From the UHGV virus genome UHGV-0119950: a stretch of DNA of 53,290 bases; one strand, written 5' to 3'. This stretch comes from a virus. The notes beneath the pieces are model-generated. The model saw only the letters and a program-made list of their open reading frames with translations. It searched no databases and was not told the origin of the DNA. A program made the position numbers and the translations under genes. This document shows positions 7,296 through 51,535 of the stretch, piece after piece (the first letter of the stretch is position 1; each line of letters starts with the position of its first letter).

Positions 7296-7454
7296 TTAAC
7301 TTTCGTGCGCCATCTGATCGTATTCAGCGCATTGCTTTGAGCAGTATTCTTTTTCTTTGTTGGCAAGCCGGTTGCCATTGCGATAGAAAAGGATGCTCTT
7401 TACTTCTTTGCCTTCTTCAACGGGTTTGCGGCAGTAACCGCATTCTTTCTGCAT
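7296..7454 (-). CDS. small zinc-ribbon protein (CxxC...CxxxC), 52 aa
   Basis: Not in ORF track (<60 aa). RBS GAGGAGGGG upstream of ATG; translation MQKECGYCRKPVEEGK...YCSKQCAEYDQMAHES. Confidence 0.4.
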   Translation of the reverse strand: MQKECGYCRKPVEEGKEVKSILFYRNGNRLANKEKEYCSKQCAEYDQMAHES

Positions 7455-7463
7455 TACCCCTCC

Positions 7464-7649
7464 TCAGATGCTTGCTGGCAGCTCTCCGTTGTGAATGATT
7501 CCCTCAACAGGCCAGCACTCACCATTAACCTTTTGCTCGACAGCTGCGGCCTGGCATTCCTGCTGGTTGTCATATACACCGAGAATCACATCCTGAAAGT
7601 CACCGTTGGTCATTGCGACCGTTAATACCAGTGCGAATAGTTCCCCCAT
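7464..7649 (-). CDS. hypothetical small protein
   Basis: 61 aa ORF; start overlaps stop of upstream gene (TGATG), GGAGG upstream. Confidence 0.4.
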   Translation of the reverse strand: MGELFALVLTVAMTNGDFQDVILGVYDNQQECQAAAVEQKVNGECWPVEGIIHNGELPASI

Positions 7650-7777
7650 CAGTGAAGAGTCCTCCCGATTGCAGCAGCATAAATACGTTTTGCTTCTTCC
7701 CAGTCTTTAATGCTGTGGTGAGCCACTGCGAAGGATGCCTTGCGCTGTGCCTCCCGGACTTGCTGCTTGTTAATCAT
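7649..7777 (-). CDS. hypothetical small protein (42 aa, MINKQQVREAQRK...)
   Basis: Internal ATG of track ORF 7649..7954; ATG overlaps stop of upstream gene (ATGATTAA), indicating translational coupling. Confidence 0.35.
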   Translation of the reverse strand: MINKQQVREAQRKASFAVAHHSIKDWEEAKRIYAAAIGRTLH

Positions 7778-8114
7778 CGTTATCCTCCAGGTGCCCGTTA
7801 TCGCGAAGCCAGCTAATGACCTCGTCAGGAGAAAGACGATCCAGAATTTCCGGTAACTTGCTGTTATTGTCAGCCCAGTCGATGTAATCCGGCAGGTCGA
7901 TAGCGGCGAACAGCACATCGCTTTCGATTTCTTCCAGCACGTCATCCACTTCAACGCCGCGAATTTCAGTGTTCACAAAATCGCGATAACCGCTGGTTGA
8001 AACGTCAACTCCCTGCGCCTTGAGATCTAAATCAATTTTCATTTTCACCCTCTGCTTGCCGTTGTCGCCCGGCTGGCGGAACGTTTGATACCTGCTGCGC
8101 GTTAACTCATCCAC
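7770..8114 (-). CDS. hypothetical protein, first gene of early-left operon
   Basis: 114 aa acidic protein; N-terminal Arg content too weak to call an N-like antiterminator. Confidence 0.45.
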   Translation of the reverse strand: MDELTRSRYQTFRQPGDNGKQRVKMKIDLDLKAQGVDVSTSGYRDFVNTEIRGVEVDDVLEEIESDVLFAAIDLPDYIDWADNNSKLPEILDRLSPDEVISWLRDNGHLEDNDD

Positions 8115-8164
8115 CTCATCACCATCTTCATACGCCTGGTGCGGCTACTTCGTGGGCGTCCTGC

Positions 8165-8256
8165 CTGGGTGGTCGTGTTGCTGTGATATTGATTAAATCA
8201 CTGGTTTATAGTTGTGTCAACTTTGAATTGATGTTTGGTGTAAATTTTAGGTTTAT
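8165..8256. promoter_or_regulatory. putative left operator/promoter region (OL-like)
   Basis: Divergent intergenic region; GATATTGATTAAATCA (8185-8200) nearly matches GAATATTGATTGAAATA in the cI/cro intergenic region. Confidence 0.35.
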
Positions 8257-8526
8257 ATGTTGGGAGAGGGAGCGTGTGTTATGCTCACAAAAACATCAAT
8301 TGGCGAGGGCTGGGTGATGGATTACGAAGAACTGGCGCAACTGCGCTATCAGGAAATGTGCCGGATTGTGGGGGATGTCGTTTTTGCGATGGTGGCTGAA
8401 GGGCATGAAACCAAAAGAGTGGCTATAGCTGACGTGATACGAACGGAGATATCGAAGGGGCTGGATAAGTGGGATGCTGACCAGATTCAGGTTATGGAAC
8501 TGGCAGTGAAGTTTCTGGAAGAGTAG
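8257..8526 (+). CDS. hypothetical protein transcribed divergently from early-left operon
   Basis: 89 aa ORF (possible later start at MLTKTS); followed by strong terminator. Confidence 0.45.
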   Translation: MLGEGACVMLTKTSIGEGWVMDYEELAQLRYQEMCRIVGDVVFAMVAEGHETKRVAIADVIRTEISKGLDKWDADQIQVMELAVKFLEE

Positions 8527-8528
8527 GG

Positions 8529-8562
8529 CAATAAAAAACCCGGCTCGGTGGCCGGGTGTTTT
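8529..8562. terminator. bidirectional rho-independent terminator
   Basis: Hairpin CCCGGCTCGGTGGCCGGG flanked by A-run upstream and T-run downstream; ends both the 8257..8526 gene and the minus-strand cassette. Confidence 0.6.
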
Positions 8563-8954
8563 TAGTTACACGCGAATTTTATACCATCTAGTGTTGTGTT
8601 TTTAAGGATGTCTTCGGCATAAAATTTGAAGTAAACCCTCATCAAAGATGAAAAATACCAAGTATATTCCTTTAAAAAATCCTCATTGAGATTTTCGCTT
8701 TTTGGATAAGAGAAAATCATTCTAATGTCGATTTTTAGAGAAAAATCTGGTTTTTCACTGCCTTTCCTGAACCCTTGAGCGATGGGGCTTGCTGAAACTT
8801 TAATTGATGACATTGATGGATCGCCACCACCGACTTCAAAATCTAAGGCGCCATATACAACCTTGATCGTGCCCTCACCAGGTGTAAGCATGGTTTGATT
8901 GAACTCCACGTTTAGAATCGCAGATTCAACCATGTTGATATCGTTAGGCAACAT
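8562..8954 (-). CDS. hypothetical protein, cassette gene 3 of 3
   Basis: 130 aa; AT-rich; start overlaps stop of upstream gene by 11 nt; no recognisable motif. Confidence 0.5.
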   Translation of the reverse strand: MLPNDINMVESAILNVEFNQTMLTPGEGTIKVVYGALDFEVGGGDPSMSSIKVSASPIAQGFRKGSEKPDFSLKIDIRMIFSYPKSENLNEDFLKEYTWYFSSLMRVYFKFYAEDILKNTTLDGIKFACN

Positions 8955-9363
8955 TTATCTCATAATCCCTGTTTTGAGGCTTAATGGTAATCTTGATGAC
9001 TGGGCTTGGTTCGTCCATGAAACTATTTAAATTCATAACGTAGTGCTTATGAGCAGGTATAACAGGATGAGAAACATCACATCCATTCTTCAGGATTACT
9101 ACTTTTGCTTCGGCACCTAGAGCGTAGGAAATATCGGAGAGGGTTTTTAGTGTCATGTTCCTAGTTCCATCTAGCAACTGAGAAACATGCGAAGCCGACT
9201 TGCCAAGTTTTTTAGCAAGTTCACGCTTAGTTATACCTGTATCCTGCATAGCTAAAAGGATGTCTTCTGTAGTATTGAACACTAATCGTTCGGAAGCCAT
9301 CTCTCTATCACTAATGTATGGAAAACCAAAAATTTCTTCTGCGAAAGTCTTATCAGTAGTCAT
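8944..9363 (-). CDS. XRE-family HTH DNA-binding protein (antitoxin-like), cassette gene 2 of 3
   Basis: 139 aa; helix-turn-helix segment ITKRELAKKLGKSASHVSQLLDG; overlaps both neighbours. Confidence 0.6.
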   Translation of the reverse strand: MTTDKTFAEEIFGFPYISDREMASERLVFNTTEDILLAMQDTGITKRELAKKLGKSASHVSQLLDGTRNMTLKTLSDISYALGAEAKVVILKNGCDVSHPVIPAHKHYVMNLNSFMDEPSPVIKITIKPQNRDYEINVA

Positions 9364-9781
9364 CTAAACCTCTCTCGATTCTCTCCCAGTTGTTACAAAC
9401 TTTTTGGACATCAGAATCGCTTAAATCATCAAAATCTTTGTAGATGTAATGACTCATAAAATAAGTCATTGATACTCTCTCCGACTCCCAGTAGTACCCT
9501 CGAATAGGTATCTTCTTTATAGCCCAGAAATTTTTTTTAGGTTTGCCATTGTAAGAAGGCAGTATTCCTTCCTTTCTGACGCTGAGATCTGGAGTTCTTT
9601 TACCTGATGCCAGGCGCTCTATTTGTAGTCTAAGCTTGACCATCATGGCTTTTTGCTTCTTAGCAGGAGTAACACTCAGTATCGCATCAGCTAGAGTTTT
9701 TAGCGCTCCATTACAATGGGTTACAGTGAAGCAAGCGCCCTTAAAAGTATGTTGAACCATCCACTTATCCATAGTTAACAT
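9353..9781 (-). CDS. hypothetical protein, possible RelE/HigB-like toxin fold, cassette gene 1 of 3
   Basis: 142 aa; AT-rich; precedes an HTH gene in toxin-then-antitoxin order; toxin assignment is only by arrangement and loose pattern; start codon uncertain (no clear RBS). Confidence 0.45.
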   Translation of the reverse strand: MLTMDKWMVQHTFKGACFTVTHCNGALKTLADAILSVTPAKKQKAMMVKLRLQIERLASGKRTPDLSVRKEGILPSYNGKPKKNFWAIKKIPIRGYYWESERVSMTYFMSHYIYKDFDDLSDSDVQKVCNNWERIERGLDDY

Positions 9782-9875
9782 ATATATTAACTCACAATTT
9801 GCAAGTGAGCCACCTTCATCTTATAGAGATAATCCGAAAAGCATGATGGTTAGCAATTCATGTCCTTATCAACTC

Positions 9876-10031
9876 TCAAAGGGACATACCGATAACGGCA
9901 TTAACCACACTTGACGCCATAAACACGCCGCCAACGATGAAGCTGGCCTGGTTCTTCCTGGTAGCGCCAAGAGTCAACAGAACCACTGAAAGGGCAAAGA
10001 AAGGTATCGCGATTATGCTGAACGTGTTCAT
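9876..10031 (-). CDS. small hydrophobic membrane protein, 51 aa
   Basis: Not in ORF track. Translation MNTFSIIAIPFFALSVVLLTLGATRKNQASFIVGGVFMASSVVNAVIGMSL; two hydrophobic stretches; directly downstream of repressor gene on same strand. Confidence 0.4.
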   Translation of the reverse strand: MNTFSIIAIPFFALSVVLLTLGATRKNQASFIVGGVFMASSVVNAVIGMSL

Positions 10032-10043
10032 GTTGACCTCAAG

Positions 10044-10463
10044 TTATTGCGATTCTCCGTCACCCTTAATCCGTCGCCCCATGTACTTCGCGTACAGCTC
10101 GTCGAGCTCCTTCAGTCGCAGAGATACGATCCGCAACATGTTCTGCTGCTCTTCTTCCGGCAGCTGGCGATAGAGTTCCAGCAGGCGCTGCTCGTCAGGC
10201 TTCATACCATCTTTCTCGCCGACATCTTCCCCGAGCAGCCAGGCGACCGAAACACCAACAGCATCGGCTATAGCCAGTGCTGATTTTTTGCTAATAACGC
10301 CTTTTTTAAACCAGCTATTGACCGCCTGAGGCGAGACTCCGGCTATTCGCGCCATATCTGCTTTGGTAATGCCTCTGGCATAGACCTCGTTGAGTCGCGC
10401 TATCAATGCTTTGTTGGGTTCTTCTTTTCTCATTCTCTCATTGTAAATGGTTAGTTTACACAC
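10044..10463 (-). CDS. prophage repressor, CI-like HTH, no S24 peptidase domain
   Basis: 139 aa; HTH (ITKADMARIAGVSPQAVNSWFKKG); divergent from cro-like gene; too short for a LexA-like cleavage domain. Confidence 0.75.
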   Translation of the reverse strand: MCKLTIYNERMRKEEPNKALIARLNEVYARGITKADMARIAGVSPQAVNSWFKKGVISKKSALAIADAVGVSVAWLLGEDVGEKDGMKPDEQRLLELYRQLPEEEQQNMLRIVSLRLKELDELYAKYMGRRIKGDGESQ

Positions 10464-10534
10464 TCAATAAATTGAATATTGATTGAAATATAAATCTGTG
10501 GTTTACTTTCTTCGTTGATAGTTAGGAGAAGAAA
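10464..10534. promoter_or_regulatory. OR-like operator/promoter region between repressor and cro-like gene
   Basis: 71-bp divergent intergenic region with AT-rich repeated TTGATTGAAAT/ATTGAATATTG motifs. Confidence 0.45.
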
Positions 10535-10768
10535 ATGACAGCACTTGATAAAGCAATTAAGGCCGCTGGTTCAGCGAGAAAGCTAAGCATGGCACTTGGT
10601 GTAACCAGTATGTCAATTAGCCATTGGAAACATCGCGACAGAGGCATTGTGCCGCCAGATTACATATTAAAAATTCACAGCATAACCGGTGTTACTCCCC
10701 ACGAATTGCGCCCTGATCTGTATCCGAACCCAACGGATGGATTACCGGCGCAGGAAGCGAGGGCGTAA
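10535..10768 (+). CDS. cro: Cro-like HTH regulator
   Basis: 77 aa; HTH (SARKLSMALGVTSMSISHWKHR); divergent from repressor. Confidence 0.7.
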   Translation: MTALDKAIKAAGSARKLSMALGVTSMSISHWKHRDRGIVPPDYILKIHSITGVTPHELRPDLYPNPTDGLPAQEARA

Positions 10769-10770
10769 CC

Positions 10771-11313
10771 GTGCATTCAATTTCATTTCAACAAAATACC
10801 GGGTTTCCTCCAGCCACGATGATAAATCGCAATCAGCCTGATCCGGCGGATAAGCATGACCAGATTCGGGCTGCCGTTCGTGCGTGGTCGGCATCGCTGG
10901 ACAACCAGGACGTAGTCGCCGGGATCATCGTTGAAGAATGGGAACGGCAGGGCGGCGCCGGGCTGGATTTTCCTGACGACCTGAGCCGTAAGCGGCAGAA
11001 GCTTTTCCGCTGGCTGGACAGCGACACCGGATATGCGCGCGAAAACATCCGCCAGCTGACTCCGGCAATCCTGGCTGTTATGCCGCTGGAATTTCGTGGG
11101 CGCCTTATCGGACAGGATTGTTTCATGACGCGTTTTGCAGCGATGGAGAAGGAAATCAGCGAGGCGAAACAGGCCGTAATGTTGAATGCGCCAAAGCATC
11201 AACTGGTGAAAGAGGTCAGGGAAGGGATTGAGCATCTGCTGAATATGTTGCCGGATGATGCTGTTGTTCAGGTTCTGAGTGGTATCGCGGCCATAGCGCC
11301 GGGTGTCATGTGA
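10771..11313 (+). CDS. CII-like regulatory protein (possibly CP76-type)
   Basis: 180 aa ORF immediately after cro-like gene (GTG start); position matches lambdoid cII; family call from memory. Confidence 0.45.
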   Translation: MHSISFQQNTGFPPATMINRNQPDPADKHDQIRAAVRAWSASLDNQDVVAGIIVEEWERQGGAGLDFPDDLSRKRQKLFRWLDSDTGYARENIRQLTPAILAVMPLEFRGRLIGQDCFMTRFAAMEKEISEAKQAVMLNAPKHQLVKEVREGIEHLLNMLPDDAVVQVLSGIAAIAPGVM

Positions 11314-11576: not shown

Positions 11577-11695
11577 AAGGGTGAAGACCGCTGTGCTCGA
11601 ACACAGACGGCCTTCGGGTGCAATTAGTTGCGTACTCATTGCGAGGTCATTATGACAAAGAGTTTTTCAAAACACCAGGCAAGGGAGGCATAGCT

Positions 11696-19893: not shown

Positions 19894-20072
19894 TTCAAGT
19901 GACTTTTATCACGGATCGGAAAGACATTGGTACGTGTATAATGATAAAAAATGAATACCGTAGGGGATTGCATGTCAGACTGGAATATCGCAGCAAAATA
20001 GAAAGAAGAGCAGGACAAGGTTAATGTTGATCTGGCCGCCAGCGGCGTTGCGTATAAAGAGCGCCTGAACAT

Positions 20073-20231
20073 GCCGGTTGTTGCTGAAGTGGTGATGCGT
20101 GAGCAGCCGGAGCACTTGCGCGACTATTTCATTGAGCGCGTCAGATACTATCGTGAGCAAAGCCTGAAGCTACCGAAATCATCCGATCCGCGCTACATCG
20201 AAATGGCTGAGCAGAACGCCAAAAAGTAACT
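20073..20231 (+). CDS. hypothetical small protein (52 aa)
   Basis: Not in ORF track; short ORF ([30 protein letters not shown]...) ending just before a strong terminator; coding status uncertain. Confidence 0.25.
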
Positions 20232-20248
20232 GAACATGGAATGAACTC

Positions 20249-20271
20249 AACCCGCTTCGGCGGGTTTTTTT
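20249..20271 (+). terminator. rho-independent terminator
   Basis: AACCCGCTTCGGCGGGTT hairpin followed by TTTTTTT. Confidence 0.6.
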
Positions 20272-20342
20272 ACGCCTGAAATTTGTGTCTACGGGTTAAC
20301 AATTCGTGCTCTTAAAACGTTGATCATTTCGTTTTATAGGTA

Positions 20343-20362
20343 TACTGTATAAAAATACAGTA
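20343..20362. promoter_or_regulatory. LexA box (SOS operator)
   Basis: TACTGTATAAAAATACAGTA, exact CTGT-N8-ACAG palindrome, about 20 bp upstream of dinI-like start. Confidence 0.75.
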
Positions 20363-20380
20363 TACGCAATGGAGGCCACT

Positions 20381-20614
20381 ATGAAAGTTGAGTTAACTAT
20401 TGATCGAACAAAGAAACTTCCTGATGGTGCAGTGCCAGCACTTGAAAAAGAATTGCTTAAACGACTGAATAATCAGTATGAGAATTGCAGCCTGACAATC
20501 CGTCGCGCCGGATCAGATGGACTGAGCGTTTTCGGTGGCGATAAGGACGATAAAAAGAAAATTGAAAAGATCCTCCAGGAGACCTGGGAAAGCGCTGACG
20601 ACTGGTTTTACTAA
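20381..20614 (+). CDS. dinI: DinI-family protein
   Basis: MKVELTIDRTKKLP...KIEKILQETWESADDWFY matches E. coli DinI as I recall it (C-terminal ILQETWESADDWF); RBS GGAGG; LexA box upstream. Confidence 0.8.
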   Translation: MKVELTIDRTKKLPDGAVPALEKELLKRLNNQYENCSLTIRRAGSDGLSVFGGDKDDKKKIEKILQETWESADDWFY

Positions 20615-20730
20615 CATTGCGCTTGGGGCTGGCGCGCATTTTTCAGAATACCGCAATTTGCGTATCCCTTTGATGCTGCTGCCGACAATTTTTAACCGCG
20701 TCTGTATGTCGCTCGAAGGGAGAACAGAAT

Positions 20731-20979
20731 GTGAGTAATTCAGCTTTGCAAACGTCAGAAGATAACTGGTATGACATTGTAAGACGGTCTGACGGCTGCG
20801 TGGTGTTTAGCTTTCCTTCGTCGGGCAGGCATCTTATCTATCGCGTCAATGGCATGGTTTCCATGCGGCCTTTGCTGGATGATGAAGAAGTCTTTACTCC
20901 CAATGGCTTTATGCAATTTATTCGCCGTCTCGGCTACCGGGTAACGCCGCCTTCTGATAATATGAAATCAACGGTCTGA
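20731..20979 (+). CDS. hypothetical protein
   Basis: 82 aa, GTG start with RBS AAGGGAG. Confidence 0.4.
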   Translation: MSNSALQTSEDNWYDIVRRSDGCVVFSFPSSGRHLIYRVNGMVSMRPLLDDEEVFTPNGFMQFIRRLGYRVTPPSDNMKSTV

Positions 20980-21016
20980 ACAGCCGTTAACCTGCTGCGC
21001 CACGGAGTGAACAACC

Positions 21017-21616
21017 ATGGCGCAATTACAACTCATTAAGCAGTCAACAGGAATCCTGATCCCCGCGACGCCGGAGACCAGTGATTTTCTGCAATCAAAA
21101 TGCAAGCTCGGCTCCGTTCTGGTTGCCGACTTTAAGCTTGTCCGCAATCCGGCGTTTCATCGCCGTTTCTTTGCGCTCCTGAATCTTGGATTCGAATACT
21201 GGGAACCAACGGGCGGCGCCATATCAGCTAACGAGCGAAAACTGGTGAATGGTTACGCCAGATTCCTGGCATCGTATGGCGGGAATGAAGGGGCGTTGCT
21301 GGATGCTGCTGAGCAGTATCTGGAGCAGATCGCCAGTCGCCGTATCACGAACGGAATCAGCCTGTGTAAATCCTTTGATGCATACCGCGCCTGGGTAACT
21401 GTCGAGGCCGGTCACTTTGACGCCATCCAGTTACCAGATGGCACGCTCCGCAAACACCCTCGCAGCATCGCGTTCTCCAGTATGGACGAAACCGAATTCC
21501 AGCATCTCTATAAGGCCGCGCTCGATGTCCTGTGGCGCTGGATATTGTCCCGTACCTTCAACAGCAGGGAAGAGGCTGAGAACGCCGCCGCCCAGCTCAT
21601 GAGCTTTGCGGGGTAA
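21017..21616 (+). CDS. hypothetical nin-region-like protein (possibly DUF1367/YbcN-like)
   Basis: 199 aa ORF upstream of ybcO-like and rusA; family call from memory, not verified. Confidence 0.4.
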   Translation: MAQLQLIKQSTGILIPATPETSDFLQSKCKLGSVLVADFKLVRNPAFHRRFFALLNLGFEYWEPTGGAISANERKLVNGYARFLASYGGNEGALLDAAEQYLEQIASRRITNGISLCKSFDAYRAWVTVEAGHFDAIQLPDGTLRKHPRSIAFSSMDETEFQHLYKAALDVLWRWILSRTFNSREEAENAAAQLMSFAG

Positions 21617-21822
21617 TGGCGATGAAGTATTCATATTTTCATCACACGGAATGCACCACCGAGCAGGCAGAGCGCCTGATTGCCGATTATCAGTCTCGCG
21701 GCGTCAGAGCCCAAAAGAGCCTCAATCCTGATTTCCTGACCTGGACAGTCAGCGCGAAATTACAAGAGTGCGAACGTCCGGCGCGGACGCCGAGAACCTT
21801 CCGACAAAAAGGATGGGGGTGA
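21616..21822 (+). CDS. hypothetical small protein
   Basis: 68 aa; ATG overlaps upstream stop (TAATG). Confidence 0.35.
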   Translation: MAMKYSYFHHTECTTEQAERLIADYQSRGVRAQKSLNPDFLTWTVSAKLQECERPARTPRTFRQKGWG

Positions 21823-21824
21823 GC

Positions 21825-22115
21825 ATGGCTAACCTTCGAAAAGCTGCGCGTGGACGGGAATGCCAGGTGCGTATTCCGGGAGTATGCAACGGCAACCCCG
21901 AGACATCTGTGCTGGCCCATATCCGCATCGCTGGGTTATGTGGCACCGGCATCAAACCGCCAGACCTTATCGCGACTATCGCATGCTCATCATGCCATGA
22001 CGAGATTGATCGCCGAACTCATCTGGTTGATGCGGAATATGCGAAGGAGTGCGCGCTGGAGGGGATGGCCCGAACTCAGGTTATCTGGTTGAAGGAGGGT
22101 CTCATAAAATCATGA
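21825..22115 (+). CDS. ybcO: YbcO-like (DUF1364) Cys-rich putative nuclease
   Basis: MANLRKAARGRECQVRIPGVCNGNPETSVLAH...CSSCHDEIDRR resembles E. coli DLP12 YbcO as I recall it; sits upstream of rusA as in DLP12. Confidence 0.6.
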   Translation: MANLRKAARGRECQVRIPGVCNGNPETSVLAHIRIAGLCGTGIKPPDLIATIACSSCHDEIDRRTHLVDAEYAKECALEGMARTQVIWLKEGLIKS

Positions 22116-22468
22116 CAGTCTACGACATCACGCCGATCGGCAAGCCCAGAATGACTCAGCGCGACAGATGGCACAAACGGCCAGCGACAGAGGCGTACTG
22201 GTCATACAAATCGCAGGTGCGTCTGCTGGGCATCGAGTTACCGGAAGCCGGTTATCACATCACATTTGTTATCCCTATGCCTCGAAGCTGGAGCAAGAAG
22301 AAGCGCGCACAACACGCCGGGCAGCCACATCAGCAGAAGCCAGACAAAGACAATCTGGAAAAGGCGCTGCTGGATGCAGTGTTTGATGAAGATAGTCACG
22401 TCTGGGATGGCCGGGTAACAAAAATCTGGGGCGAGAGAGGGCAGATCATCATCGAGGAGGCAAAGTGA
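22112..22468 (+). CDS. rusA: Holliday junction resolvase RusA
   Basis: MTVYDITPIGKPRMTQRDRW...IPMPRSWSKKKR pattern typical of RusA; ATG overlaps ybcO-like stop. Confidence 0.8.
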   Translation: MTVYDITPIGKPRMTQRDRWHKRPATEAYWSYKSQVRLLGIELPEAGYHITFVIPMPRSWSKKKRAQHAGQPHQQKPDKDNLEKALLDAVFDEDSHVWDGRVTKIWGERGQIIIEEAK

Positions 22469-22600
22469 AGCCTGAGGTTATTGAGTCTCTTCGCTGGCGC
22501 TGGCTGCGTCTCCGCATTTATCGCTACCGGGGATCTTTTCCTGTGGCATACCGCATCCTTCGCAATTACATCCGCATTGAAGAAAAACGGGAGCATCAAA

Positions 22601-23407
22601 ATGAATCTTGAGTCCTTACCAAAATATTTTTCGCCTAAATCCATGATGCTCGGCGCTGTTCCATGCGGAATTTCAGCAGACACGCTGACTATTACTGACG
22701 TAATGGCATCCCTCGGGCTACTTACTGCAAAAGCAGCGGTGGGTATTGAATTGTATCTGGCAAAAGCCGGGGTTTTATCCTCAGACAATATCATTGCCTA
22801 CATTAAGAAGCTGGCAGAGCAACGAGCAGAACGCCACGGAAAACTCAAAAAAATGGAAGAGAATGAGCGCTCAAAATTTCTCGATACTATGGCGCGTTAT
22901 GTGTTTCGCGATTATTCCCTCAGTGCGGCCAGTCTGATCACTTGCCCGGATTGCCACGGACAGAAGTTTATTGATGCTGAGGTTTTCACGAACAAGGTTA
23001 CTTTCCCGGATGGTAAGCCACCAAAATGGGTAAAAGATACGAAAGGTATTTCTCCGTCAGACTGGGAGGTGTGGAAATCAGTACGTGAGCAAGTGCGCGT
23101 CGTGTGTAAGACGTGCGATGGTAAAGGCCATGTGAAAAACGAATGCCGTTGCCGGGGGCGCGGAGAAATTCTCGATAAGAAAAAATCAGAGTTGCAGGGC
23201 GTTCCGGTTTATAAAAAATGCCCGAGATGCAAGGGAAGAGGTCACCCACGCCTCAAAGATACCGAGATTTTTAAAGCGCTGGGAATAACGGAAATGGTAT
23301 GGCGGTACAACTATAAACAGTTTTTCGATCGGCTGGTGGAGCATTGCCATATTGAGGAATCGTATGCAGAAAAGGTTCTGGGAAACGTGACCCGATGGCC
23401 AGCATAA
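22601..23407 (+). CDS. late antiterminator Q (phage 82 type)
   Basis: From internal ATG MNLESLPKYFSPKS; resembles Q82 as I recall it (MRLESVAKFHSPKS, CRDCHGTG, CGRCKG, QCHKEESIAD...NAVTR); located just before lysis genes. Confidence 0.7.
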   Translation: MNLESLPKYFSPKSMMLGAVPCGISADTLTITDVMASLGLLTAKAAVGIELYLAKAGVLSSDNIIAYIKKLAEQRAERHGKLKKMEENERSKFLDTMARYVFRDYSLSAASLITCPDCHGQKFIDAEVFTNKVTFPDGKPPKWVKDTKGISPSDWEVWKSVREQVRVVCKTCDGKGHVKNECRCRGRGEILDKKKSELQGVPVYKKCPRCKGRGHPRLKDTEIFKALGITEMVWRYNYKQFFDRLVEHCHIEESYAEKVLGNVTRWPA

Positions 23408-23494
23408 TTTAGCTATTGCAAAATTAACGGAAAATGGCTAACCTGATTCCAACGATGGGTTGTTACGCCTGTGACGTTATAAGAATTAAAAAAA

Positions 23495-23518
23495 CCTCGC
23501 TTCGGCGGGGTTTTCTTT
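23495..23518 (+). terminator. candidate tR'-like terminator downstream of Q
   Basis: CCTCGCTTCGGCGGGG hairpin followed by TTTTCTTTT, about 90 bp after Q stop. Confidence 0.45.
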
Positions 23519-23992
23519 TATGGATTACCGACGCCAATAAGACAAAGTGCGGGGAGTGTTGCGGAGCCTACATGTTCCAGCCGACCGCAAAAGCTCACAT
23601 GGGCAGGACCACAATCTGATACCGCGATAGCTTTTGCTGATTGCGCCGGAGCGGTAACCGGCAACAATTTTAAGCCTCGGTGATTGCCGGGGCTTTTTGC
23701 TTTTTAAACACAATGGAAAGCCTTCTTTCATGCCCTGCTTAGGCGCAACACTAAGTATTCGGGAGGGCTGGCTTCCCATTGTGGTGAATGCGCAGGCTGA
23801 TGCGCTAAGCGGCAAAATAATCGGGATGAGACAGGCCACCTATCCGCTGTTTTTCCAGCTTTGACTGGTAACACTCTAAACAAGCCGGAGATCAGCACCG
23901 GCCACCACAATCATTTTTAAGGCTGCCACTCGGCGGCCCTTTTTTATTTCCCCTCGTACTGAGAGGACTCACAGCAATTAAGAGGGGGCTAA

Positions 23993-24385
23993 ATGTCCGA
24001 TCCTGTAACTGGCACCGGTGCTGTACTCAGCGGAGGTCTGTTGGGCTCCGTTGCATATGGCGTATTTACTCACACCGATTTTGGCGTCGTTTTTGGCGCG
24101 TTTGGCGGCGCCGTATTTTACGTCGCAACTGCGGCTAACCTGACCCGAATTCGCCTTACCGCATATTTTTTGACGTCCTTTATCGTTGGGGTGCTCGGCG
24201 CGGGGTTAGTGGGTTCGAAACTTTCAGCCTGGACGGGGTACAGTGACCGGCCACTTGATGCGCTTGGCGCCGTGATTATGTCTGCCATCACCATAAAAGT
24301 GCTGACGTTCATCAACGGCCAGGATCTGAACAGTTTGTTCGGTATGCTTTCGCGGCTTCGCGGAGGAGGGGGAAATGGTAAGTGA
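23993..24385 (+). CDS. holin
   Basis: 130 aa, Gly-rich with several predicted transmembrane stretches; first gene of lysis cassette. Confidence 0.6.
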   Translation: MSDPVTGTGAVLSGGLLGSVAYGVFTHTDFGVVFGAFGGAVFYVATAANLTRIRLTAYFLTSFIVGVLGAGLVGSKLSAWTGYSDRPLDALGAVIMSAITIKVLTFINGQDLNSLFGMLSRLRGGGGNGK

Positions 24386-24653
24386 CCCGACAGCACTGCT
24401 TAACTCGATCACCTGCGCGGTGATAGTTCTTGTTCTGATGTTCTACCAGCGTCGGGGTGCACGTCACCGGCCTTTCATTTCGTTTCTGGCATATCTGACC
24501 GTGCTGGTTTACGCCGCCATTCCTTTGAAGTTCATTTTCGGCCTGTATCACGATTCAAACTGGTTTGTGGTACTGGTGAATATTCTGATTTGCGTTGCAG
24601 TTCTCTGGGTTCGTGGAAACGTGGCTCGACTTATTGACATGCTGCATAAATAA
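24375..24653 (+). CDS. holin-associated membrane protein (second holin or antiholin)
   Basis: 92 aa with hydrophobic segments; overlaps holin stop. Confidence 0.45.
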   Translation: MVSDPTALLNSITCAVIVLVLMFYQRRGARHRPFISFLAYLTVLVYAAIPLKFIFGLYHDSNWFVVLVNILICVAVLWVRGNVARLIDMLHK

Positions 24654-24789
24654 AAGACGAGTTGCAGCGACATCACTACAACCCGCCAAAGGTCACCAAA
24701 AGGTATTAGGATAAATCTTAATTCTAATTATGTTTTAAATCACTTCTTAAAGCATCCTTAAATCTGGTAGTTCCTGTACGGATAATTTT

Positions 24790-25419
24790 ATGAATCAACA
24801 ACAATTTCAGCACGCGGTTGGTGTAAGCGCCGGATTAGCTGTGCGCTGGTTTTCGCACATCGATGCAGCAATGAAAGAATTTGGCATCACTGCGCCGCTC
24901 GACCAGGCGATGTTCATCGCGCAGATGGGGCATGAGTCCGGCGGGTATGAAAAGCTGGTGGAAAGTCTGAACTACGCAGCCGATCGTCTTGTTCCCGTAT
25001 TCGGCAAGCACCGTATCACGGCACAGCAGGCTGCCGCACTCGGCAGAACGGCAACGCAACCAGCTAATCAGAAAGCGATAGGCAATCTGGTTTACGGTGG
25101 TGAATGGGGTAAAAAGAACCTGGGCAATCAGGTCGCTGGTGACGGCTGGAAATATCGTGGGCGCGGGCTGAAGCAAATCACAGGGTTAAGCAACTATCGC
25201 AAATGCGGCATGGCGCTAAAACTGGATCTGGTCACGCAGCCGGAATTGCTGGAACAGGACGAAAATGCAGCGCGTTCCGCAGCGTGGTTCTTTGCCACCA
25301 GCGGATGCCTTGTGTATTCCGGCGATGTGGAACGTATCACGATCATCATCAATGGCGGTAAAAACGGTCTTGATGACCGCCGTCACCGTTTCAATCTGGC
25401 AAAAGCCGTGCTGGTGTGA
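24790..25419 (+). CDS. endolysin, glycoside hydrolase family 19 type
   Basis: 209 aa; FIAQMGHESGGY motif typical of GH19 phage lysins; between holin and spanin genes. Confidence 0.75.
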   Translation: MNQQQFQHAVGVSAGLAVRWFSHIDAAMKEFGITAPLDQAMFIAQMGHESGGYEKLVESLNYAADRLVPVFGKHRITAQQAAALGRTATQPANQKAIGNLVYGGEWGKKNLGNQVAGDGWKYRGRGLKQITGLSNYRKCGMALKLDLVTQPELLEQDENAARSAAWFFATSGCLVYSGDVERITIIINGGKNGLDDRRHRFNLAKAVLV

Positions 25420-25426
25420 GGCAGCT

Positions 25427-25696
25427 ATGGGAATTGAAATGATTATCGGCCTGGCCGCAGCGGTGATTGCCGCTATCGCTGGTGCTTTCGGTTTCGGCCA
25501 TGCGCGCGGCACCAGCAAAGCGGAAGCCAAAGCAGACAAGCAGCGCACAGAAGAGAACGCCGCAGCAACGGTAGCGGCAGCAGAGCGCCGGGTGGAAGTA
25601 ACGAAAGAGGCCAGTAATGTACAGCAGACTGTTAACCATATGCGTGGCGACGATGTTGATCGCGAGCTGCGCGACAACTGGACCCGCAAGGATTGA
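25427..25696 (+). CDS. i-spanin (Rz-like)
   Basis: N-terminal transmembrane helix (MIIGLAAAVIAAIAGAFGF) then charged helical region; immediately after endolysin. Confidence 0.6.
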   Translation: MGIEMIIGLAAAVIAAIAGAFGFGHARGTSKAEAKADKQRTEENAAATVAAAERRVEVTKEASNVQQTVNHMRGDDVDRELRDNWTRKD

Positions 25697-25847
25697 GGTA
25701 GTGGACACGGCCTGCGATTGGGTTAAGCCCATCTACGGCACGGCTCACGACTGGGATGTGCTGGACAAGCAGACGAAGCGCGACATCCTGGCGCATAACA
25801 AAACGTGGCAGGCGAACTGCCATAAGAAGCAAGCAATGAGTTTATAA
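25617..25847 (+). CDS. o-spanin (Rz1-like lipoprotein), overlapping Rz in another frame
   Basis: Signal peptide with lipobox LIASC; starts inside the Rz-like gene out of frame and extends past it. Confidence 0.55.
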   Translation: MYSRLLTICVATMLIASCATTGPARIEVVDTACDWVKPIYGTAHDWDVLDKQTKRDILAHNKTWQANCHKKQAMSL

Positions 25848-25911
25848 ATTAAAGATCTTCTACTTGTGTGCCGATTATGTTTCCATTCTTACTGTATGGA
25901 GATGGATGCAC

Positions 25912-26271
25912 ATGAAAGTATTACAAACATTAGGCGGTTACCAAGGTGGTCAGGCCGGGATTTTTCAGTACAAAAGGAATAGCGATGGGGTAGTTATTGA
26001 TCCTACCGTCGGTATGAATGCTAATGCGGAAATCATTGAGATTTCTAACGATGATTGGAGTGGGATGATTAATCGGTTAGAAAACATTGGCAAGAAAGTC
26101 GTTGATTTGACGGAGATAAAACAAGAGATCGCAGATGAGCTCGGGATGAATAACACTGAGACTGCCGCCGTGGTTGCTATATTGGAACACGAAGGAACAT
26201 TCGACCATTATGGCGGATTTATCGGTGGCGGGGAGTCAGTTTCAATTCATCTACGTAGGGATGATGACTAA
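25912..26271 (+). CDS. hypothetical protein
   Basis: 119 aa from ATG with GGAG upstream; lower GC than surrounding lysis genes. Confidence 0.4.
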   Translation: MKVLQTLGGYQGGQAGIFQYKRNSDGVVIDPTVGMNANAEIIEISNDDWSGMINRLENIGKKVVDLTEIKQEIADELGMNNTETAAVVAILEHEGTFDHYGGFIGGGESVSIHLRRDDD

Positions 26272-26295
26272 TTCAAGCTGGTTTTAAGGGGACAG

Positions 26296-26319
26296 GCCTC
26301 GAATTCGCGAGGCTTTTTA
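26296..26319 (+). terminator. rho-independent terminator
   Basis: GCCTCGAATTCGCGAGGC hairpin followed by TTTTTA. Confidence 0.55.
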
Positions 26320-26366
26320 TTGCCATCACCATGGGCAGACCCATCGTAATGGCGAAATCACAGTAT

Positions 26367-26573
26367 TTATCGATATAACCGACCAAGTGCCTTAATGGCT
26401 GCGATTCTAATCTCTATATCATCACTTTGGCTTAATTTGTGTAGTTCCTGGGTAATGTTATCCGCTTGGCATCTACCTTCGCCTAACGCATAGATTGCAG
26501 CAAGTTTGATGTCTTTTGGCTGGGTCATCATCTGCAACAAAAGCATGTTAGCTATTGGTTGCGGCATGCTCAT
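26367..26573 (-). CDS. small HEAT-repeat-like protein (68 aa)
   Basis: ATG with RBS AAAGGGAA (MSMPQPIANML...); repeats AAIYALGEG and AAIKALGRL resemble HEAT/PBS-type repeats; AT-rich. Confidence 0.4.
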   Translation of the reverse strand: MSMPQPIANMLLLQMMTQPKDIKLAAIYALGEGRCQADNITQELHKLSQSDDIEIRIAAIKALGRLYR

Positions 26574-26687
26574 ATTTATTCCCTTTAATGAGATAAACAC
26601 TGGTACTCACAGACAAGCTGGAAATGTGCTGTTGCGAGTACCTCATCGGTTTAAACGTGCATATACGTTTAACGCATATGCCAGTAT

Positions 26688-27125
26688 TTATGGATTTCCT
26701 AAGATTATCGCGTTATCTATACGATCCCAGCACTCAGTAAAATCAAACACCTTTTTTGCACTCGATACTGAGCCCCAGTGCTCCTTGAGATTCATAGCGT
26801 GGCGGTAAGTGGTTGCGATCGGATAGTCATGGTAGCCTTTTTCGTCAGCCACGATCGCGCGAGTTCTACCTTCGTCAAACCTTGTTATGCCATCGCGAGA
26901 AATGTGCATTATCGATGGGTTTAGCTCTCCGCCGTGCGTCATCCATTCTCTGATAGAAGTCAGTTTGGTGCTTATTGGGTCGTACCCATCCTCTTTGAAT
27001 TGAGCCAAGGCAACTTCTTTTGCCCAAGCACTGTTAACGATAAGAATCACTGCCTTATCGCTTTGATCTGAATTTTCGCAAATATTCCAGATTTTTTTAT
27101 AGGCGGGAGTTACACATCTAATCAT
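26688..27125 (-). CDS. hypothetical protein (145 aa), AT-rich moron
   Basis: Internal ATG with strong RBS AAGGAAG preferred over track TTG start at 27167; no recognisable motif. Confidence 0.45.
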   Translation of the reverse strand: MIRCVTPAYKKIWNICENSDQSDKAVILIVNSAWAKEVALAQFKEDGYDPISTKLTSIREWMTHGGELNPSIMHISRDGITRFDEGRTRAIVADEKGYHDYPIATTYRHAMNLKEHWGSVSSAKKVFDFTECWDRIDNAIILGNP

Positions 27126-27235
27126 TGTTCTTCCTTTTCTATCAGCCACTGGAATCATTATCGTCAATTCACTGAGAAAGCTTAAGCGTATTTCACTTTA
27201 TGGCGACCATCGAATCAAAATAACGGAGTAAAACA

Positions 27236-28222
27236 ATGGCAAAACCGGACTGGGGCGAGCTTCAGCAACGGTTCCTGTCCGACAATGCCGCTACCGGCGT
27301 ATCACCGAAGGATTGGTGTGAAGCGCAGGGACTGAATTACGCAACAGCCCGCCGATACATAAAAAGACCAACTGCGCAAAAACCTGCGCAGAAAAAATTG
27401 CGCACTGCGCAAAAGGAAAAATGCGCAAAAGAGTTGGTGGATGATGACGGTCTTACTGCTCAGCAGCGTTTATTTGTTGCGGAGTACCTGAAGGATAACA
27501 ATGCCACGCAGGCTGCCATTCGTGCCGGGTACAGCAAGAAGACTGCTGAACAAATTGGGTATCAACTTCTTCAGAAAACTTCAGTTGCGCAGGCAATTGC
27601 GCAGCAGCAGAAAGAATCGTTAATGCGCACACTCGGCAGCGCAGACGAGGTGCTTGCGCAGATGTGGCAACTCGCCACTTTCGACGCAAATCAGCTTTCG
27701 CAATATCGTCGTGGCTGCTGCCGCTACTGCTGGGGCTTTGGTCATCAGTATCAGTGGCGTGACGCAGTTGAGTATGAAGAGAAGCGACTCGAAGCGATTG
27801 AACGCAAACGTCGCGAGCCTGAGGACGTGGGCGGATATGGATATGACCATACGCAGGAACCAAATCCTGATTGCCCGCGCTGTAATGGTGATGGCATTGG
27901 TCAGCCGTTCTTTGCCGACACGCGCAAACTGGCACCTGATGCTGCGCTTGCCTATTCCGGCGTTAAGCTCGGCAAGTACGGCGTTGAAATTACCGCGATA
28001 AGCCGCGAACGGATGTTTGAAGCCGTAATGAAGCGCCTCGGCCTGGCAGACAGTGAATTTGCTCAGCGCCTGCAACAATTGGAAATTGAACGACGACAAT
28101 TGGAGGTTGACAAACTTCGATGGGAGATAGCCCTGGATAAAAACCCAGCGGGATTTGAAGAGGATTATCAACTTCAGCCAATAACTCCCGATGAGGAACC
28201 TCCAGATGATCCAATCCTCTAA
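27236..28222 (+). CDS. terminase small subunit
   Basis: 328 aa; segment LTAQQRLFVAEYLKDNNATQAAIRAGYSKKTAEQIGYQLL typical of TerS; immediately upstream of TerL. Confidence 0.75.
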   Translation: MAKPDWGELQQRFLSDNAATGVSPKDWCEAQGLNYATARRYIKRPTAQKPAQKKLRTAQKEKCAKELVDDDGLTAQQRLFVAEYLKDNNATQAAIRAGYSKKTAEQIGYQLLQKTSVAQAIAQQQKESLMRTLGSADEVLAQMWQLATFDANQLSQYRRGCCRYCWGFGHQYQWRDAVEYEEKRLEAIERKRREPEDVGGYGYDHTQEPNPDCPRCNGDGIGQPFFADTRKLAPDAALAYSGVKLGKYGVEITAISRERMFEAVMKRLGLADSEFAQRLQQLEIERRQLEVDKLRWEIALDKNPAGFEEDYQLQPITPDEEPPDDPIL

Positions 28223-29519: not shown

Positions 29520-29520
29520 T

Positions 29521-51515: not shown

Positions 51516-51535
51516 TACTGTATGTATAGACAGTG
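51516..51535. promoter_or_regulatory. LexA box upstream of umuD
   Basis: TACTGTATGTATAGACAGTG, exact CTGT-N8-ACAG, 18 bp upstream of the umuD-like start. Confidence 0.7.

Follow-up and report, generated by a model that had tools for sequence, protein, structure and literature searches.

Operators of the PL region in a Gifsy/Rac-type lambdoid prophage and the fumD-like gene beside them

Which sequences link the left control region of this phage to its repressor, and does the same region drive the small gene that runs away from it? These are the questions raised by positions 8165–8526 of the viral genome UHGV-0119950, analysed here as one stretch of 53,290 nucleotides (the window). The original prediction recognised in this segment a left operator-like region that shares a motif with the cI/cro intergenic region and drives a gene divergent from the early-left operon. 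As described below, positions 8165–8316 are the OL/PL region of a Gifsy/Rac-type lambdoid prophage, an ordinary one of its kind, whose operator is shared with the repressor-cro region, overlaps a predicted leftward promoter and covaries with the repressor. The explanation that we favour for the whole locus, with a probability of about 80%, combines an OL/PL region with TAAAT-N5-GTTTA sites, an autonomous fumD cassette with its own promoter, and a 9-mer common to both control regions by chance. The features are collected in Table 1.

Table 1. Positions of the features at the left and right control regions, in window coordinates
Feature	Position	Strand	Remarks
Structured RNA in the PL leader	8108..8174	-	Outer 5-bp stem enclosing two hairpins; covariation support
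Left motif of the original prediction, GATATTGATTAAATCA	8185..8200	+	Corresponds to PL start, -10 region and left half of OL-a
PL, predicted leftward early promoter	8192..8220	-	-35 TTGACA 8220..8215, 17-nt spacer, -10 TTTAAT 8197..8192
OL-a, promoter-proximal left operator, core TAAATCACTGGTTTA	8194..8208 (19-bp site 8192-8210)	.	Match to TAAATNNNNNGTTTA; conserved in the family
Alternative fumD promoter candidate, TTGATG (8228-8233), N18, TTTATA (8252-8257)	8228..8257	+	-10 is the right half of OL-b
OL-b, distal left operator, core TAAATTTTAGGTTTA	8241..8255 (19-bp site 8239-8257)	.	47 bp from OL-a
Predicted fumD promoter, extended -10 TGtTATGCT	8277..8285	+	Start predicted near 8292, within the conserved CACAAAAAC box
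fumD-like gene, 69 aa	8317..8526	+	DUF2767/YdhZ family; RBS GAGGG 8305-8309
Bidirectional intrinsic terminator	8538..8557	.	Called on both strands; ends the fumD transcript, and the repressor/cargo operon on the opposite strand
Repressor, 129 aa	10044..10433	-	HTH_3 and Phage_CI_repr matches only; no peptidase domain
OR-a operator, core TAAATGGTTAGTTTA	10444..10458	.	Inside the predicted PRM spacer
OR-b operator, core TAAATCTGTGGTTTA	10491..10505	.	Over spacer and -10 of the predicted PR

The operator consists of a 15-bp core, TAAAT-N5-GTTTA, placed within a 19-bp quasi-palindrome, and two copies of it are found 47 bp apart in each control region. The pattern TAAATNNNNNGTTTA has exactly four matches in the window, all of them at OL or OR, against an expectation of 0.06, and four matches were reached in none of 100 shuffles. 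These two plus two copies support the claim that the left region and the cI/cro intergenic region have repressor sites in common. The same arrangement recurs in 25 related prophages, each of which has two OR sites at 47–49 bp from each other, with a matching OL pair at 46–48 bp in nearly all of them. Their operators belong to different specificity classes (TAAAT..GTTTA, TAAAC..GTTTA, TAAGY..RCTTA and others), and OL and OR switch class together: the half-sites of a locus's own OL and own OR agree at 9.62 out of 10 positions, compared with 8.71 ± 0.12 for permuted pairings, a level of agreement that none of 5000 permutations reached, although the loci are related and their independence is overstated in this count. 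Moreover, the residues of the repressor recognition helix change with the operator class (PQAVN.WFKKG, (S/A)QSVNNWFVRG and PQSVNGWFKKG). A prophage of C. sedlakii has a fumD 98% identical to the one described here and conserved flanks, yet with both OL and both OR sites swapped to TAAAC..GTTTA. The three adjacent operators per region in the style of lambda, P22 or 434 were found in none of the 26 loci, all of which keep two sites per region at a distance of 46–49 bp. OL-b itself is present at the 46–48 bp spacing in relatives with or without a gene after it, and so belongs to OL generically.

The position of these sites relative to the promoters suggests how the repressor may act on them. The predicted strong promoter PL carries a TG at 8200..8199 (TGaTTTAAT) and, read from the sequence, would start near 8185. 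In almost all 26 loci its -35 element (GTCAA on the + strand) stays at a fixed offset from OL-a. Both the spacer and the -10 of PL lie under OL-a, and the TTTAAT hexamer is the operator half-site itself. The predicted PR (TTGATT 10479-10484, TG 10499-10500, TTTACT 10502-10507) is collinear with PL, its TTGATT being followed by four nucleotides and then by a 19-bp operator that ends in TTTACT, and OR-b covers PR just as OL-a covers PL. On the other side, OR-a falls within the spacer of a predicted PRM (-35 10467..10462, -10 TACAAT 10445..10440). The promoter scanner missed PL because its -10 has a T at position 2, where the scanner demands an A. In the proposed mechanism, the short HTH repressor would recognise the TAAAT-N5-GTTTA sites at both OL and OR, and a repressor dimer at OL-a would block RNA polymerase at the -10 of PL and keep the early-left operon off, with OL-b probably serving as an auxiliary or cooperative site.

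The repressor is 99% identical to that of an E. coli prophage with the same operators, and the annotation of the E. coli prophage shows a gene order identical to that of the window: RecE operon, PL/OL, fumD, terminator, cargo, repressor, cro and a cII-like gene. An AT-rich cassette (GC 0.37–0.42 over 8450–9950) and the terminator at 8538–8557 do lie between the OL region and the repressor gene, as the original prediction stated. It was mistaken, on the other hand, in presenting this as a departure from lambda, where cI and OL are likewise separated by a terminator and the cargo genes rexA and rexB. Two features of Gifsy-type prophages were found, namely a short repressor without an S24 self-cleavage domain, and a LexA box with dinI downstream of the replication genes. 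The box, CTGTATAAAAATACAG at 20345–20360, adjoins the DinI gene (20369–20614; E = 5e-27), and beside dinI an ORF of 82 aa (20731–20979) occupies the position that gfoA (249 bp) has in Gifsy-1; this ORF had no match in Pfam or NCBIfam. Such a layout of LexA box and dinI is the one described for the Gifsy prophages (Lemire et al. 2011, PMC3121763). The LexA boxes of the window lie at 11591, 20345 and 51518, none of them within 8165–8316, and the idea of fumD as an SOS-controlled antirepressor was rejected on this ground. A PADLOC search of fumD and the cargo genes returned generic HTH matches only, for a cargo protein of 139 aa.

The gene that follows OL was first read as an 89-aa ORF (8257–8526) of unknown function. 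The reading frame on the + strand is real, and it is indeed divergent from the early-left operon, PL pointing leftward. Its extent was overestimated: the gene encodes 69 aa and starts at 8317, because the matches to Pfam PF10965 (6.9e-37; 125.8 bits for a cut-off of 20.7) and to phrog_5948 both begin at residue 21 of the longer ORF, and homologues in P22-like phages use the corresponding codon as their start, a short way downstream of an in-frame stop. The NCBIfam model NF007630 was also matched over positions 1–68 of the 69 residues (102.1 bits for a cut-off of 82). As for the function, the family at least is a known one, FumD/YdhZ or DUF2767. Judged by its sequence, the gene is a member of this family and it is annotated as fumD in E. 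coli and phage records, a fumarase role of the phage copies being putative; the name reportedly goes back to E. coli YdhZ and a metabolomics screen done in vitro. An AF2 model of the 69-aa protein predicts a three-helix bundle (pLDDT 92.8). A sequence search with FumD against solved structures gave no matches, and fold searches with the model gave nothing with E below 0.4, the best and weak match being YmgB/AriR.

The distribution of this gene is that of a cassette. It adjoins PL in about 20 operator types (80 viral contigs), and likewise in the phages ST160, Oslo and BTP1; of 5426 complete E. coli genomes, only 14 have the phage-type fumD, every time in a prophage context. Among syntenic loci, the slot beside OL is empty in 12, while one has a degraded copy there and three have diverged small genes; relatives keep the terminator motif, GGGCAATAAAAAACCCGGC..GCCGGG, behind the gene in the slot. 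That the operator region drives the divergent gene, as originally proposed, is probably not the case, since an extended -10 of its own is conserved across dozens of unrelated upstream contexts. Of 54 distinct upstream contexts, 38 have a TGn-NAnnnT motif whose hexamer precedes the start codon by 29–37 nt, where about 16 would be expected, and most of the contexts without it carry TATGGT in the same place. From this conservation, the fumD-like gene probably has its own promoter. Data for the BTP1 homologue, STMMW_03522, point in the same direction, as it reaches a TPM of 17–53 in 17 of 17 lysogen conditions (PMC7067206, Table S5); its levels are uncorrelated with those of N, ral and cro (r = 0.06–0.08), which follow one another closely (0.81–0.94). 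BTP1, the source of this expression evidence, has a different repressor and operator set, with operators that do not overlap the fumD promoter. Altogether, fumD would behave as a self-contained moron at the outer edge of OL, equipped with an extended -10, a short A-rich leader, an RBS and a bidirectional terminator. Its expression in lysogens is most likely low to moderate and largely independent of the lytic switch, which is the least certain part of the proposal and is drawn from the homologue. From the centre of OL-b to the predicted fumD start there are only about 44 bp, a distance at which the repressor could still influence the gene.

A perfect 11-nt inverted repeat (8226–8236 / 8291–8301) is left over by the cassette model; it shows one compensated change in the E. 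coli prophage, one uncompensated change in a viral contig and identity in a third sequence. Folding of the fumD leader from two candidate starts gave marginal z-scores of about -1.9, and a comparison of k-mers shared between OL and downstream sequences in 24 operator types was powerless against the 3 kb background.

An unlikely reading, though the most probable of the alternatives, holds that the repressor directly controls fumD, as an immediate-early lytic gene, through TTGATG-N18-TTTATA, the -10 of which is inside OL-b. The gene would then be silent in lysogens and fire with PL upon induction, and OL would mirror OR as a divergent region with two promoters. A further candidate, GTGATA-N18-TATAGT, lies over OL-a, and use of either sequence as the promoter would leave fumD repressed in lysogens. 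The geometry is in its favour, with OL-b placed relative to TTGATG-N18-TTTATA as OR-b is relative to PR and with the two-operator layout and its spacing alike at OL and OR, but the candidate -35 is not conserved: TTGATG has become TTAATG in the E. coli prophage of the same immunity, and nothing alike is found in fumD-bearing loci of class 2. A good promoter (TTGATA-N18-TATAAA) does abut the outermost operator in ST160 and BTP1; in the latter, however, the homologue is expressed in lysogens without correlation with N. The distance between OL-b and the conserved leader is also variable (32, 42 and about 54 nt), and the retention of OL-b in loci without a following gene further weakens direct control.

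Less probable still is an activation of the fumD promoter from OL-b, with the repressor acting there as lambda cI acts from OR2 on PRM, so that fumD would be a repressor-dependent lysogenic-conversion gene. At some 44 bp upstream of the start set by TGtTATGCT, the centre of OL-b would occupy a class-II-like position, and this promoter has a poor -35 which an activator could help, although extended -10 promoters need no activators. The distance from the centre of OL-b to the -10 (32, 42 and about 54 nt) varies by approximately whole helical turns, a phasing argument that covers three lineages only. Expression of the homologue in BTP1 lysogens agrees with such activation, but the same cassette is expressed there beside a wholly different repressor. 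The occurrence of the cassette beside about 20 operator types, taken with the BTP1 expression, argues for autonomy over repressor activation. A more elaborate version, which we regard as very doubtful, sees OL as a twin of OR in which repressor at OL-b activates a weak extended -10 promoter, as lambda cI does with PRM, and fumD, made only under repression, encodes a small YmgB/AriR-like three-helix regulatory connector and no fumarase. If that were true, the roughly whole-turn steps of 32, 42 and about 54 nt would reflect a face-of-helix requirement, and the FumD-like protein would reprogram host physiology in lysogens.

The motif on which the relation between OL and OR was first based fared worse. 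Its strings lie where the original prediction placed them (GATATTGATTAAATCA at 8185–8200, GAATATTGATTGAAATA at 10474–10490 and TTGAATTGATG at 8223–8233), but the close match announced for the first two is reduced to the exact 9-mer ATATTGATT; the remainder aligns only with gaps, and no ungapped match exists at three mismatches or fewer. Nine nucleotides is the longest word common to OL and OR and is not significant, as AT-rich regions of such size shared a word of at least 9 nt in 64 of 500 Markov simulations (13%). On the minus strand, ATATTGATT has a third copy at 1352. In the E. coli prophage with the 99% identical repressor, the OR 9-mer is mutated (ATATTGCTT) and the true operator cores are intact, four out of four; other relatives of the same operator class lack ATATTGATT at OR. 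The 9-mer is adjacent to the operator core at OL and 7 bp away from it at OR, over the -35 of PR, and with these different offsets the copies are out of register. The only overlap of GATATTGATTAAATCA with the true operator is its 3′ end, TTAAATCA, and just this part is conserved by the family. It is thus highly improbable that the ATATTGATT-containing strings and TTGAATTGATG are shared repressor half-sites: even with ATATTGATT at both regulatory regions and a single further copy in 53 kb (0.59 expected; three or more in 2 of 100 shuffles), the frequency in simulations, the mutated or missing OR copies and the unequal offsets from promoters and operators speak against them, and TAAAT-N5-GTTTA is a far better motif. 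It is by chance that the start region of PL and the -35 region of PR agree in this 9-mer. In other words, the label of left operator was right and the motif chosen for it was wrong, and of the proposed shared half-sites what holds is that OL and OR share repressor sites, those of TAAAT-N5-GTTTA.

A side finding, more unusual than the operators and fumD, concerns the RNA transcribed from PL. RNAalifold predicted 17 pairs over the whole leader, 10 of them with compensatory changes, and 96.9% of the cells of the leader alignment were paired; 500 shuffles never reached the observed values. A covariance model of the element matched with E = 2e-24, and a single copy is found in the window. An alignment-based analysis was needed here, as the leader folded as a single sequence was uninformative (z-score 0.2), and an Rfam scan of 7400–11000 returned a sub-threshold S15 match only. 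The element is reminiscent of HK022 putL in being a conserved structured RNA of about 65 nt directly after PL, in phages where no N can be recognised. It differs in being single, without a PR-side partner, and in its predicted architecture of a stem enclosing two hairpins, whereas putL is made of two tandem stem-loops. Homology with HK022 put was rejected, as the covariance model found nothing in HK022 20000–31500, nor did BLAST.

Compared with known systems, the locus resembles lambda in that repressor sites are repeated at the left and right control regions, where they overlap the early promoters, and in that PRM appears to yield a leaderless repressor mRNA. Lambda, in contrast, has three adjacent sites per region, against two about 47 bp apart, one per promoter, in the window. 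The window further differs from lambda in its repressor, a short HTH protein that lacks a self-cleaving domain, in having no recognisable N gene, and in an operator half-site that also serves as the -10 hexamer. Other parallels are Gifsy-1, -2 and -3 (GfoR, GtgR and GfhR, with LexA-controlled antirepressors; Lemire et al. 2011, PMC3121763) and their relatives RacR and DicA, which have a short non-cleavable repressor, and a LexA box, dinI and a small ORF also lie downstream of the replication genes in the Gifsy prophages. A YdaS-type cro, a YdaT-type cII and a RecE-type early-left operon complete the likeness to the Gifsy/Rac group, and the repressor of the window matches the DicA and RacR models weakly. 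For the cassette, the nearest relatives are STMMW_03522 of BTP1 and its homologues in ST160, SE1 and Oslo, P22-like phages in which the gene is unannotated; these proteins are 89–95% identical to the FumD of the window. The genes occupy the same slot, divergent from PL and before the repressor/cargo terminator, with a homologous leader and -10 region, but in phages that have cleavable repressors of the lambda/P22 type, three different operators, an N gene and a fumD promoter outside the operators. E. coli YdhZ/FumD has the same length of 69 aa and a full-length match above the curated cut-off, whereas no DNA-level match exists between the chromosomal copy and the phage-type gene.

Neither the operator nor the cassette findings would surprise a specialist in lambdoid phages. 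From sequence comparison, they suggest a concrete operator definition for a family of non-cleavable repressors widespread among the prophages of Enterobacterales, TAAAY-N5-GTTTA and its class variants in a two plus two arrangement, which helps to predict heteroimmunity and cross-talk between prophages from sequence. The highly conserved 69-aa FumD/YdhZ-like gene, on the other hand, is a mobile cassette, always beside PL, in about 20 immunity types. Its expression in lysogens of at least one phage flags the FumD-like protein as a candidate lysogenic-conversion factor, for which the label of fumarase is putative.

The window contains a Rac/Gifsy-type lambdoid prophage, in which the OL/PL region, comprising the left operators (OL) and the predicted leftward early promoter (PL), is an ordinary, well-resolved feature. 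As guessed in the original prediction, this is a left operator and promoter, but with a different operator motif. Alignment of the repressor-cro intergenic region among 25 prophages encoding relatives of the repressor (52-84% identity), to which was added an E. coli prophage whose repressor is 99% identical, revealed two conserved quasi-palindromes separated by variable sequence, with a core in the window of TAAAT-N5-GTTTA. The 53 kb contain just four matches to this core (0.06 expected), at OL-a, OL-b and the right operators OR-a and OR-b; four were reached in 0 of 100 shuffles. With a generic operator pattern, two OR sites 47-49 bp apart were found in every relative, and a second pair with 46-48 bp spacing lies 0.5-2.9 kb leftward in nearly all of them. 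Each region here has two operator sites, whereas lambda has three.

Features of the prophage control regions and their surroundings
Feature	Coordinates	Strand	Details
RecE-like gene (1080 aa) and small early-left genes	up to ~8045	minus	
GTG-initiated extension of first early-left ORF	8045-8114	minus	reads MDELTRSRYQTFRQPG
Small hairpin in PL leader	8066-8078	minus	outside the structured RNA
Structured RNA	8108-8174	minus	5-bp outer stem around two hairpins
PL (predicted)	8220..8215; 8197..8192	minus	TTGACA, 17 nt, TTTAAT with preceding TG
OL-a	8194-8208		
Inverted repeat, 11 nt, perfect	8226-8236 / 8291-8301		AATTGATGTTT / AAACATCAATT
OL-b	8241-8255		
fumD promoter (predicted)	8277-8285		TGtTATGCT; predicted start near 8292
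fumD	8317-8526	plus	69 aa
Bidirectional terminator	8538-8557		between fumD region and repressor
Cargo block	8562-10031	minus	AT-rich (GC 0.37-0.42); three genes plus 51-aa membrane protein, between terminator and repressor
Repressor	10044-10433	minus	short HTH
PRM, repressor promoter (predicted)	10467..10462; 10445..10440		TTGAGT-16-TACAAT; OR-a within spacer
OR-a	10444-10458		
PR, cro-side promoter (predicted)			TTGATT, four bases, 19-bp operator ending TTTACT with preceding TG; layout as PL
OR-b	10491-10505		
cro, YdaS-type	10535-10768		followed by YdaT-type cII-like gene
CTGT-N8-ACAG	11591-11606		
LexA box, perfect	20345-20360		CTGTATAAAAATACAG; directly upstream of DinI gene
DinI gene	20369-20614		right of LexA box
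82-aa ORF	20731-20979		after DinI gene; no family match
CTGT-N8-ACAG	51518-51533		CTGTATGTATAGACAG

The original prediction had proposed as shared repressor half-sites two similar strings, at 8185-8200 and 10474-10490, which were both found there together with the related string nearby and a divergent 89-aa ORF (8257-8526). The strings do share an exact 9-mer, ATATTGATT, but nothing beyond it exactly, and a shared word of at least 9 nt was obtained in 13% of Markov simulations of two AT-rich regions of the same sizes, so that the match alone is not beyond chance. Moreover, the 9-mer is mutated at the OR of the E. coli prophage with the 99% identical repressor and missing from the ORs of the remaining relatives of the same class, which speaks against it as the shared operator and for the TAAAT-N5-GTTTA sites. 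It falls in the PL start region at OL and in the PR -35 at OR, and the left string reaches into an operator by just its final eight bases.

Among the relatives, operators fall into several specificity classes (TAAAT..GTTTA, TAAAC..GTTTA, TAAGY..RCTTA and others), the class of the left pair is always that of the right pair, and the recognition helix of the repressor switches along with it. Half-site identity between OL and OR was 9.62 out of 10 in their own pairing against 8.71 ± 0.12 when permuted, and 0 of 5000 permutations attained the value of the own pairing; as the loci are related, the test overstates their independence. The cleanest case of co-variation is a Citrobacter sedlakii prophage that shares the flanks of this locus and whose fumD (the divergent gene beyond OL-b) is 98% identical, but where the repressor is 66% identical and 4/4 operators have changed to TAAAC-N5-GTTTA.

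The predicted PL would be a strong extended promoter. The outer half-site of OL-a doubles as its -10 hexamer, and its -35 is conserved at a constant offset in almost all 26 loci. The predicted -10 of PRM (TACAAT, 10445..10440) stops six bases short of the repressor ATG (10433), which suggests that the repressor mRNA may be leaderless, as in lambda. In the simplest mechanism, there would be one operator per promoter, and bound repressor would occlude the -10.

All relatives share a conserved PL leader, although the first downstream gene varies, and this leader holds a structured RNA with conserved loops CCACGAAGUAGCC and GGCAUACGAA. The predicted fold of the leader has 17 pairs, including a fourth hairpin outside the element; 10 of them show compensatory changes across 21 sequences, and 96.9% of cells are paired; these values were reached in 0 of 500 shuffles and slid controls were far lower. 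A covariance model found the element once in the window and in 21 of 80 viral contigs that carry fumD, apparently those with TAA..TTA-type operators, but not in HK022 put regions or P22-like phages; the element bears no similarity to HK022 put. By Blastn its core is present, unannotated each time, in SfV, SfII, ST64B, ZF40, mEp237 and others. We speculate that it is a put-like antiterminator of these N-less phages. The first early-left ORF can be extended upstream to a GTG; this extension overlaps the structured RNA, is left out of the PHROG match, and resembles the arginine-rich beginning of lambda N (MDAQTRRRERR), which may mark a fossil or be due to chance.

Further to the right, the LexA box, dinI and the 82-aa ORF follow the Gifsy-type layout of an SOS-controlled antirepressor; in Gifsy prophages, LexA-controlled antirepressors inactivate the non-cleavable repressors (PMC3121763). 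The 82-aa ORF lies beside dinI as gfoA (249 bp) does in Gifsy-1. Two more CTGT-N8-ACAG matches occur in the window, and the one at 51518 looks like a genuine LexA box. The cargo block, in a slot equivalent to rexAB, has overlapping genes of 142, 139 and 130 aa, with the membrane protein gene adjoining the repressor. The 139-aa protein has an HTH and matches candidate-defence PDC-M64 models, and the block may contain a defence or toxin-antitoxin module.

The 89-aa ORF, previously of no assigned function, is real and divergent, but the true gene is shorter and belongs to the FumD/YdhZ family. Pfam DUF2767 and phrog_5948 matches begin at residue 21, and the gene was re-started because P22-like phage homologues begin at the equivalent codon, just after an in-frame stop. 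NCBIfam assigns the shortened product as an equivalog of FumD/YdhZ (102 bits; cut-off 82), and homologues are labelled fumD in RefSeq. The protein is very conserved across Enterobacterales (mean column identity 86% in a 33-sequence sample) and was modelled with high confidence as a three-helix bundle (pLDDT 92.8). Among solved or viral structures there was no significant match, the best being E. coli YmgB/AriR (probability 0.92, TM 0.64-0.70, E = 0.68). Among 5426 complete E. coli genomes, no more than 14 carry the phage-type fumD, and Blastn detected no other copy in this species, so any chromosomal ydhZ must be too diverged for this search.

The fumD slot is variably occupied. In 12 of the 25 relatives it holds no gene and the repressor-operon terminator follows OL-b by ~45 nt; one carries fumD, another a frameshifted remnant, and in three the place is taken by smaller genes (of 50 and 64 aa, none matched by Pfam). 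Since OL-b is kept where the slot is empty, it belongs to OL and is not a fumD device. In the ~230 nt upstream of fumD in the 80 viral contigs (IMG/VR), the gene adjoins PL-type control regions of ~20 operator types, those of ST160/BTP1 and Oslo immunity among them. It is accompanied by a -10 region (TGnTATGCT, TATGGT or, in the P22-like set, TGcAATACT), an A-rich box at the expected transcription start, an RBS and a terminator. Of 54 distinct upstream contexts, 38 have the -10 hexamer at a distance of 29-37 nt from the start codon, where ~16 would be expected at any position. The inverted repeat brackets OL-b and the predicted fumD promoter, linking the PL/OL-b interval with the point where the fumD mRNA is predicted to begin. 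The conserved first part of the fumD leader forms its right arm, and comparison was mixed, with one compensated change in the E. coli relative and one uncompensated change in another contig.

The repressor possibly represses or activates fumD in this lineage, as the predicted start of the fumD transcript lies ~44 bp beyond the OL-b centre; in the three Gifsy-like classes that centre is 32, 42 and ~54 nt from the fumD -10, roughly whole helical turns apart. Two alternative promoter candidates overlap OL-b or OL-a instead. The BTP1 homologue STMMW_03522 showed TPM 17-53 in 17/17 lysogen transcriptome conditions (PMC7067206, Table S5). Its profile shows no correlation with those of N, ral and cro (r = 0.06-0.08); these three correlate among themselves (0.81-0.94), and their signal reflects a sub-population in spontaneous induction. 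An autonomous, lysogen-expressed cassette is therefore favoured, by extrapolation from BTP1, whose repressor differs. Altogether, the divergent gene is a moron of known family, most likely transcribed from its own promoter.
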